Positions 2 through 1,027 of a stretch of DNA of 1,027 nt are shown here, piece after piece. The stretch comes from Escherichia coli (lineage in GTDB: Bacteria; Pseudomonadota; Gammaproteobacteria; Enterobacterales; Enterobacteriaceae): assembly GCF_003334385.1 (NCBI RefSeq), contig NZ_QOWN01000134.1. One strand, written 5' to 3'. The notes under the pieces are model-generated. The model worked only from the letters and a program-made list of their open reading frames with translations. It was not told the origin of the DNA and did no database searches. Every line of letters begins with the position of its first letter. Within the stretch, counting starts at the first letter, position 1. The translations under genes were made by a program, and so were the position numbers.

Positions 2-1027
2 TACATTCACCAGTCCCTGACGCTGCTGAAGCAGTTCATTCCCCAGCCCCAGCAGACGGTTGAATTCCGTATGCTGACCGTTCATAACCAGCATGGACTG
101 GTACACCTTATTCTGCTCTGCCGCCTGCTGACGAATTAACGCCACACGACGGTCTTCCAGCCCGGCAAGCACATCCTGAATGGACTGCGCTTTTTCCTGC
201 ATCTGTGCCAGACGGGACTGCTCAACGGCAAGCTGCTCTGTTGCCTGAGAAAGCCCTTCCGTTACGGTCTTCACCGATGTCAGATGGTTTATCATGAATC
301 CGTCACCGGTTGTCCAGCCAGGGTTAGCCAGAACATACTGATATCCAGCGATTTTTTCCTGCGGGGATTTCACCCGGCTGGCCTGTTCATCAATCAGCCG
401 GTTCTGCTCTGCCAGCGCCGCCCGTGTTCGTCCTTCATTATCTGAGGCTTCAGGCAAAGACATTGACGGCGTTTTATGCGCGATTTCATCTATCGTCAGT
501 GCATACTGGCGCGCTGACTCCCTGGCCTGCTCCTGATTCTGGTACAGCGTATACCATGCTGCTGCCCCCAGCATCACCAGTCCGGGTACGCCACCAACCA
601 GTCCCAACGCACCAGTCATCAGACGTGAGCCCACCGCCGTTGTACTGTTCAGCGCATTCTGGGCTGCGGTTCTGGCAGCAATATTTCTGTTCAGGCGTTC
701 CTGTGTGGCCGCCAGACGGGCTTCTGCAGCAATCTGCATCTCCGTCCCGCGGGCTGCCGCCACAGCCTGCTGTGCACGGTACACGGCTGCCCTTGCCCGC
801 GCCGTGGCAATCTGCGTCCCCCTGAGCTGTGCTTCCGCCAGTGCCACTTCATTACGTGCTGCCGTCACAAGTCCTGCCGTGGCAGACACCGCTCCGGAGG
901 CCATATTGCCAAAGTACCGGGCAACCCCGACGGCAACCAGCGCCCCCGCTGCTGTTGCCACATTATCAATATTACCGGCAACACCGTTCAGCACGCCGGA
1001 GAGCGTTTTCGTCGCTCCGCTGGCTTC
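2..1027 (-). CDS. Putative phage tail tape measure protein (tail length determinant), internal fragment; CDS continues beyond both window edges (N-terminal side past 1027, C-terminal side past 1)
   Basis: Seen in sequence: hand translation of the reverse complement from 1027 gives 342 sense codons with no stop, so the frame is open end to end. Composition is strongly non-random: Gly/Ala/Val-rich hydrophobic segments at residues ~9-57 (LSGVLNGVAGNIDNVATAAGALVAVGVARYFGNMASGAVSATAGLVTAA) and ~136-162 (LMTGALGLVGGVPGLVMLGAAAWYTLY), with Ala/Arg/Gln/Glu-rich helical stretches between and after them. Codon choice is consistently enterobacterial-like in this frame. Established knowledge: tape measure proteins are long, mostly alpha-helical, low-complexity proteins with Gly-rich hydrophobic segments. 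Inference: the family assignment rests on architecture only, not on a database hit; exact boundaries are unknown. Confidence 0.62.

Follow-up and report, generated by a model that had tools for sequence, protein, structure and literature searches.

A putative coiled-coil connector of an HK97-type tail tape measure protein lies on an exchangeable gene cassette

What is a short run of aromatic, glycine and proline residues doing inside a helical part of a phage tail protein? The question was raised by an earlier note on a 1,027-nt stretch of Escherichia coli DNA (hereafter the window), which picked out a non-helical island at nt 278–346 of a presumed tail tape measure protein (TMP) and suggested that it might be a conserved interaction motif or a hinge. 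The minus strand of the window is a single reading frame, open through all 1,027 nt (codons at nt 2–1027), whose 342-aa translation corresponds to residues 273–614 of a 1080-aa protein. Residue numbers below are those of this translation unless the full-length TMP or another protein is named. The island itself (GYQYVLANPGWTTGDGFMINHLT), located by translation and followed up by a composition test, is encoded on the minus strand and spans residues 228–250, equivalent to residues 500–522 of the TMP.

The window is an internal part of a TMP gene. Its DNA is 99.3–99.8% identical to TMP genes annotated in Stx-converting and other lambdoid E. coli prophages, with matches in 1,959 of the 5,426 complete E. 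coli genomes (about a third) and in 105 phage records; the copy of the gene in phage Lys8385Vzw encodes 1080 aa. In a profile search the window protein matched PHROG 339, which spans the whole length of the TMP, with an E-value of 2.6e-115. In a full-length gene that is 99.3% identical to the window, PF06120 (Phage_HK97_TLTM) was found at residues 395–686 (E=1.2e-89), a region that includes the island. The full-length relative also carries TMP_3 (PF20155) at residues 83–272 and a lambda-type C-terminal domain (PF09718 at 862–933, TIGR01541 at 725–1043); the window is internal and contains neither of these two. In relatives that share 99.3% and 99.8% identity with the window, the TMP gene has tail assembly chaperone (G/GT) genes on one side and the tail tip genes M-L-K-I-J on the other. 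A small ORF upstream of the TMP gene was considered as a gp15-like exclusion moron and rejected, its DUF4035/Phage_tail_T match marking it as the T part of the G-T chaperone.

HK97 gp16, itself assigned to PF06120 and PHROG 339, has the same order of TMP_3, HK97_TLTM and lambda-type C-terminal domains and the same gene neighbourhood. Aligned end to end, the two proteins are identical at 581 of 1107 aligned positions (52%), and their central thirds are about 37% identical. The window gene is an HK97-type tail tape measure protein, a member of an already known family, and shows all of the testable defining features of that family. The earlier identification of the protein as a TMP is thus borne out by PHROG 339, PF06120, DNA identity and gene neighbourhood alike. 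In the closest relative of the window, from E. coli G1/2, a complete porin gene annotated ompC lies inside the tail gene cluster (positions 10968–12131 of that locus), between an M-like tail gene and the gene for minor tail protein L; several structural genes of the same prophage are annotated as frameshifted.

TMPs of siphophages fill the tail tube as a trimer, the central part of which is not resolved by cryo-EM and appears as density about 20 Å wide; in the JBD30 study only the last 33 TMP residues were built, and the TMP was proposed to be expelled and then to refold into a channel for DNA passage (PMC11445458). Tail length is set by TMP length, and central segments tolerate deletion or replacement: in the TMP of phage TP901-1, central parts can be deleted and tail length drops linearly with the number of residues removed (PMC5099701).

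We found the composition of the island to be unusual. Its 23 residues hold 4 of the 13 aromatic residues (F/W/Y) of the window and 5 of its 34 Gly/Pro residues. A 23-aa window with at least four aromatics and at least five Gly/Pro arose in 2.1% of 20,000 shuffles, which makes the clustering real, if modest. In the island, successive aromatics are 2, 7 and 6 residues apart, and no aromatic periodicity of 11 or 18 residues was detected in the window protein (p=0.20 and p=0.48, respectively), which rules out the island as part of the periodic Trp/Phe repeats described in some TMPs. The TMP of TP901-1, like the window protein a mainly helical ruler with hydrophobic segments, does have 11/18-residue Trp/Phe repeats (PMC5099701); here the aromatic cluster lies outside any repeat.

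The island is also one of the three spots of lowest helix propensity in the window, the others being KTPSMSLPEASDNEG (residues 185–199) and a hydrophobic segment with a GG-PG signature (residues 137–151). An AlphaFold2 model of the window protein, computed as a monomer from a 29-sequence alignment and read with DSSP, gave a helix at residues 191–234, no regular structure at residues 235–251 and a helix again at residues 252–340. The predicted non-helical segment (NPGWTTGDGFMINHLTS, nt 275–325, minus strand) has pLDDT values below 50 at residues 239–248. It opens with Asn-Pro-Gly (residues 235–237, nt 317–325, minus strand), a helix-terminating sequence. The break is real, but in the model it begins only at N235, the upstream helix ending with GYQYVLA, the stretch that opens the island; at the other end, S251 is part of the break. 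The letters that the earlier note gave for the island and for its flanks were exact, both flanks are helical in the model, and its description of a non-helical break with Pro, Gly and aromatics needs only a shift of boundary to residues 235–251. Structure prediction, which it had proposed, thus returned a segment without regular structure, at low confidence. No solved structure covers the island region; of the homologous chains, 8rk3 and 9occ align only to the N-terminal part of the protein, and 8iyk, 25vf and 9l9p only to its C-terminal part.

Six residues upstream of the island, residue 222 (nt 362–364) is Pro in the window, through a private change from CTG to CCG (C at nt 363). This residue, which occupies a core 'd' position in the heptads of the upstream helix, is Leu in all 28 aligned homologues and in the closest genomes (99.3–99.8% identical). 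The substitution could be a sequencing error or reflect decay of a non-functional prophage copy.

The two helices that flank the break are both heptad-periodic. Fourier power at period 3.5 was significant for the upstream helix (residues 191–234, nt 326–457, minus strand; p=0.047) and strongly so for the downstream helix (residues 252–340, nt 8–274, minus strand; p<0.001). Upstream of the break the best heptad register is 1 and immediately downstream it is 6, meaning that the helices are out of phase. Because of this phase shift, heptad power over the undeleted residues 191–340 is weak (0.54, p=0.07).

A natural deletion bears on the same point. A 10-nt direct repeat (TTTTTCCTGC, plus-strand letters) is present at nt 191–200 and again at nt 353–362, the two copies, 162 nt apart, marking the two end points of a deletion. 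The deletion between the repeats removes 162 nt in frame, and 54 aa are lost (IAGY...QMQEK), the island included; the resulting 1026-aa gene is annotated as intact. The two coiled-coil segments are joined in one register (heptad power 1.71, p<0.0005). This in-phase join illustrates the phase discontinuity at the island, with a 1-in-7 chance that it is a coincidence. The deletion junction was found in 143 complete genomes, all those listed being O157:H7 or close relatives, and in none of 50,697 phage records. The prophage that carries it is degraded, with a frameshifted portal gene and with the J region replaced by nleL and espN. Since the allele is confined to this degraded O157:H7 prophage, it provides no argument on whether the break is dispensable, and we set it aside as evidence for dispensability. 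In the E. coli O157:H7 PA20 copy (positions 11663–18050 of that locus), Arc/Ant genes interrupt the tail tip region beyond gene L, and the type III effector genes nleL and espN stand in place of the J region.

How far is the break shared by other TMPs? An exhaustive search of 1.84 billion representatives yielded 173 relatives. Among the 150 of these that were listed, the long matches are TMPs aligned at the same position (from about residues 245–290 onward) and the remainder are short fragments; a word-based search added many further partial enterobacterial TMPs. Pfam gave TMP families only, and no match between the island and a non-TMP domain or protein was seen there or among the 150 listed relatives. 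By Pfam and the 150 listed relatives, the island is not an embedded host-like or enzymatic motif of the kind found in mycobacteriophage TMPs (Rpf or peptidase-like).

In two alignments of the family (A1 and A2), the flanks are conserved, with L-x-EQNRLI-x-EQ upstream and AT-x-QLAVEQ-x-RL-x-QM downstream, and the island is a hot spot for indels. Over 28 homologues, mean identity to the window is 0.28 in the island with a gap fraction of 0.22, the 15th lowest of 320 windows, compared to 0.42–0.52 in neighbouring segments and 0.66 in the hydrophobic segment. N235, P236 and G237 are majority residues, each present in 57–61% of the 28 homologues and together the only semi-conserved part of the island family-wide. 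Identity at W238, T240, G241 and D242 is 0.04–0.18. The positions NPGW and TGDG, whose conservation the earlier note proposed to check, thus divide into a semi-conserved N-P-G and a variable remainder.

Every homologue aligned has Gly/Pro/Ser-rich residues and indels in the column block of the break. In an AlphaFold2 model of HK97 gp16 (residues 273–625), a five-residue break, ASEGT (residues 525–529, pLDDT about 77), aligned to residues 236–240 of the window. Unlike the window, gp16 has no Pro and no NPG cap in its break and lacks the FMINHLTSV insertion described below. The two AlphaFold2 models, with pTM values of 0.41 and 0.37, consist of long single helices outside the loop. Judged from the alignments and models, the constant across the family is the position of the helix interruption, its sequence being variable. 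Since an interruption is found at the homologous position even in HK97 gp16, 'hinge' is a fair description of the island, whereas 'conserved interaction motif', the other suggestion of the earlier note, does not hold family-wide. Nor is the island the most motif-like part of the window, as had been thought: it is among the least conserved and most gapped parts, and the hydrophobic GG-PG segment leads.

This hydrophobic segment (LGLVGGVPGLVMLGAAAWY) contains G145, G146 and G149, three of the four invariant residues of the window, and P148, which is nearly invariant; the GG-PG signature is also present in HK97 gp16. The surrounding Gly/Pro-rich stretch GALGLVGGVPGLVMLGAAAWYTLY (nt 539–613, minus strand, residues 139–163) is the most conserved part of the window and is followed by AWY..YQNQEQAR. 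It has a transmembrane-like look and a low-confidence model, it also aligns to the JBD30 TMP (8rk3), and its probable equivalent in the TP901-1 TMP is the first hydrophobic region, which is essential there. The other spot of low helix propensity, KTPSMSLPEASDNEG (nt 431–475, minus strand), carries a nearly invariant M-x-L-P-E...D-N family-wide and is far better conserved than the island; in the AlphaFold2 model its helix break is limited to residues 189–190.

Within one enterobacterial subfamily the picture is different. Here the loop takes a long form described by NPG-x(3-5)-GF[ML][IV]NH[LM]TS, which we examined in a set of eight sequences (Escherichia, Klebsiella, Enterobacter, Leclercia and others) whose seven homologues are 57–97% identical to the window. 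A nine-residue insertion, approximately FMINHLTSV (residues 244–252, nt 272–298, minus strand), is present only in this subfamily and sets the long form apart from all other loop versions; in it and the preceding Gly, G-F-x-x-N-H-x-T-S is invariant. Nine of the 17 residues of the long-form core are invariant (N, P, G, G243, F244, N247, H248, T250 and S251), and the core ranks 14th of 266 17-residue windows by conservation, within the top 5%. Residues between NPG and GF differ even in close relatives (TTGDG, TTGNG, TTDNG, TTSGG). The term 'conserved motif' holds only for NPG and, inside this one subfamily, for GF..NH.TS. Invariant F, N, H, T and S exceed the needs of a passive hinge, and would suit a binding site no less than a packed connector.

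In the alignments, the loop comes in at least five alternative versions. Beside the long form of this window, NPG[WP]TTxxGFMINHLTS, there are a short Ser/Gly form (DESSQSGSG), a short Pro/Gly form (ENPQGGSG), a third and a fourth short form (KPGITSEND and NPAYKNY) and the HK97 form (ANSASEGTWLY). Loop length in the family ranges from about 5 to about 30 residues.

The loop versions are exchanged as part of a larger unit. TMP genes of the P0003 type, with the long loop, and of the P0015 type, with DESSQSGSG, are 94–97% identical in DNA on both sides of a cassette that contains the island (nt 248–418, minus strand; about residues 204–260, or minus-strand nt 610–780 approximately, some 170 nt). 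Within the cassette, which contains a 27-nt indel and has a sharp 3′ boundary, identity falls to 44–60%. By this comparison, the cassette is a module replaced wholesale between otherwise near-identical TMP genes. DNA of the long cassette occurs at 2,537 places in 1,200 of 5,426 complete E. coli genomes (22%), and the DESSQSGSG cassette in 26 complete E. coli genomes. Two TMP backbones, about 75% identical to each other in DNA and with different neighbouring chaperone genes, carry the same long cassette; between these backbones, DNA identity is 0.83 in the island vs 0.75 in its flanks. A literature search for intragenic TMP mosaicism in O157 prophages returned nothing specific.

Altogether, these results lead us to favour, with somewhat better than even confidence, the interpretation that the island is a connector or hinge that interrupts the coiled-coil rod of an HK97-type TMP. 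The upstream heptad helix (residues 191–234) stops at the Asn-Pro-Gly cap and, after about 17 residues without regular helix, the heptad helix of residues 252–340 restarts in a different register. The break at this position is a feature of the family, enlarged in the subfamily of the window by the nine-residue insertion and carried on a module of about 170 nt that recombination exchanges among TMP genes. In the virion, three TMP copies would run as a coiled coil along the tail tube. We infer that the connector absorbs the change of register between the coiled-coil segments, probably in the form of a small, packed and partly beta-like knot in which the conserved, alternating-hydrophobic GFMINHLTS packs within the trimer. 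It may also serve as a joint at which the rod could bend or double back during DNA injection, while the protein is being expelled and refolding. The break, the heptads on either side, the phase shift between them, the conservation of position, the subfamily motif and the exchange of the cassette are observations; packing within a trimer and a role as hinge are our inferences.

A parallel to such an arrangement is offered by trimeric autotransporter adhesins, in which beta-layers and necks, short non-helical elements between heptad segments, change the register of the coiled coil. The alternating hydrophobic F-M-I-N-H-L of the island would suit a short strand of this kind. The likeness is one of analogy only, the island having no sequence match to known beta-layer motifs.

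The strength of conservation within the subfamily raises the alternative that the island binds a partner. In this interpretation, which we regard as unlikely, GF[ML][IV]NH[LM]TS is a partner-binding or specificity motif on a swappable cassette, and specificity is altered when the cassette is exchanged. The partner could be the tail assembly chaperone or the tube protein while the tail assembles, a host factor of the inner membrane or periplasm encountered on DNA injection, or a protein of defence or exclusion. It would account for the higher proportion of invariant positions in the core than in the flanks of the subfamily, for the cassette being the sole strong difference between two genes that are otherwise nearly the same, and for the variation, even among close relatives, of the two or three residues that lead from NPG to GF. 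Cumby et al. reportedly found in 2015 that the requirement of HK97 for PtsG and FkpA is determined by the sequence of its TMP, which would count in the same direction. Lambda also provides a precedent: dependence on ManYZ and sensitivity to SNIPE correlate with a central region of its TMP (residues 300–400, A304V among them; PMC13190303). However, no partner is known or predicted; one and the same long cassette is found with different chaperone genes on the two diverged backbones; the alternative cassettes are low-complexity, linker-like Ser/Gly/Pro loops; and genes of lambdoid phages are routinely exchanged as mosaics, for which selection is not required.

The comparison with lambda deserves some care. 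A variable central TMP segment that differs between otherwise related phages (PMC13190303) makes lambda gpH a possible functional analogue of the cassette. Homology between gpH and the window gene is detectable in the C-terminal domain only (8iyk aligns to residues 724–1080 of the TMP), and likening the island to the gpH region linked to ManYZ and SNIPE rests on analogy.

Could the island instead be free of constraint, a lineage-specific linker that merely joins two helices? The low identity and frequent gaps that it shows family-wide, the several-fold range of loop length, and its absence from 143 genomes in which the reading frame stays open would all fit. The long form speaks differently: its core falls among the most conserved segments of the subfamily, and its DNA is more similar between backbones than are the flanks. 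On this twofold evidence the long loop is constrained and not a free linker, and the deletion allele that removes it is limited to a decayed prophage. We therefore consider an unconstrained linker improbable, a little more so than a binding motif. The earlier note had held that a lack of conservation would point to a lineage-specific linker, and this was half right: the long form does belong to one subfamily only, but inside that subfamily it is strongly conserved.

A more far-reaching version of the binding hypothesis takes the whole cassette, about 55 residues, as a swappable specificity module. The module would set either the inner-membrane or periplasmic host factor on which the ejected protein relies for DNA entry, or recognition by exclusion or defence proteins directed at the TMP, or engagement by the tail chaperone, and would be exchanged under diversifying selection. 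Its alternatives are the long NPG...GFMINHLTS, the short Ser/Gly loops, KPGITSEND and the loop of HK97. Its host-factor variant would be modelled, by analogy, on PtsG and FkpA in HK97 and on ManYZ in lambda. We regard this proposal as doubtful and attach little probability to it.

Least probable by far is that the signal stems from something other than protein structure, be it a DNA or RNA element, an antisense gene, an internal start at M245 or a proteolytic processing site. A 53-aa plus-strand ORF (nt 284–445) overlaps the island, the 10-nt direct repeats flank the region, and several database fragments, as well as PHROG 19302, begin at M245. The ORF, however, is one among many short antisense ORFs; the repeats account for the deletion and not for a function; and no RNA element, inverted repeat or antisense gene was found in the window. 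The nearest Rfam match, isrG (window 871–984, plus strand), scored 14.3 bits vs a gathering score of 100 (E=0.24) and is almost certainly due to chance. PHROG 19302 ('unknown function', 356 positions) begins exactly at M245, inside the island. A start at this codon (ATG at nt 293–295, minus strand) was ruled out: database fragments begin at every internal Met (137, 152, 189, 245 and 276), and the start at M245 is therefore a gene-calling artefact. These fragments are truncated TMP gene calls and not separate proteins.

Returning to the connector interpretation, the break is kept in place while its sequence is variable and swappable, and the island is therefore an ordinary feature, inside a known Pfam family and a routinely annotated gene; as it stands, it matters little. 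It makes a modest structural addition to what is known of the family, in that HK97-type TMPs have a positionally conserved discontinuity in their coiled coil, the length and sequence of which come as exchangeable cassettes; one of these, which 22% of complete E. coli genomes carry, bears a conserved motif. If it were true that the cassette sets host-factor use or sensitivity to defence, it would offer a handle on how TMPs cross the cell envelope, a step that is poorly understood.
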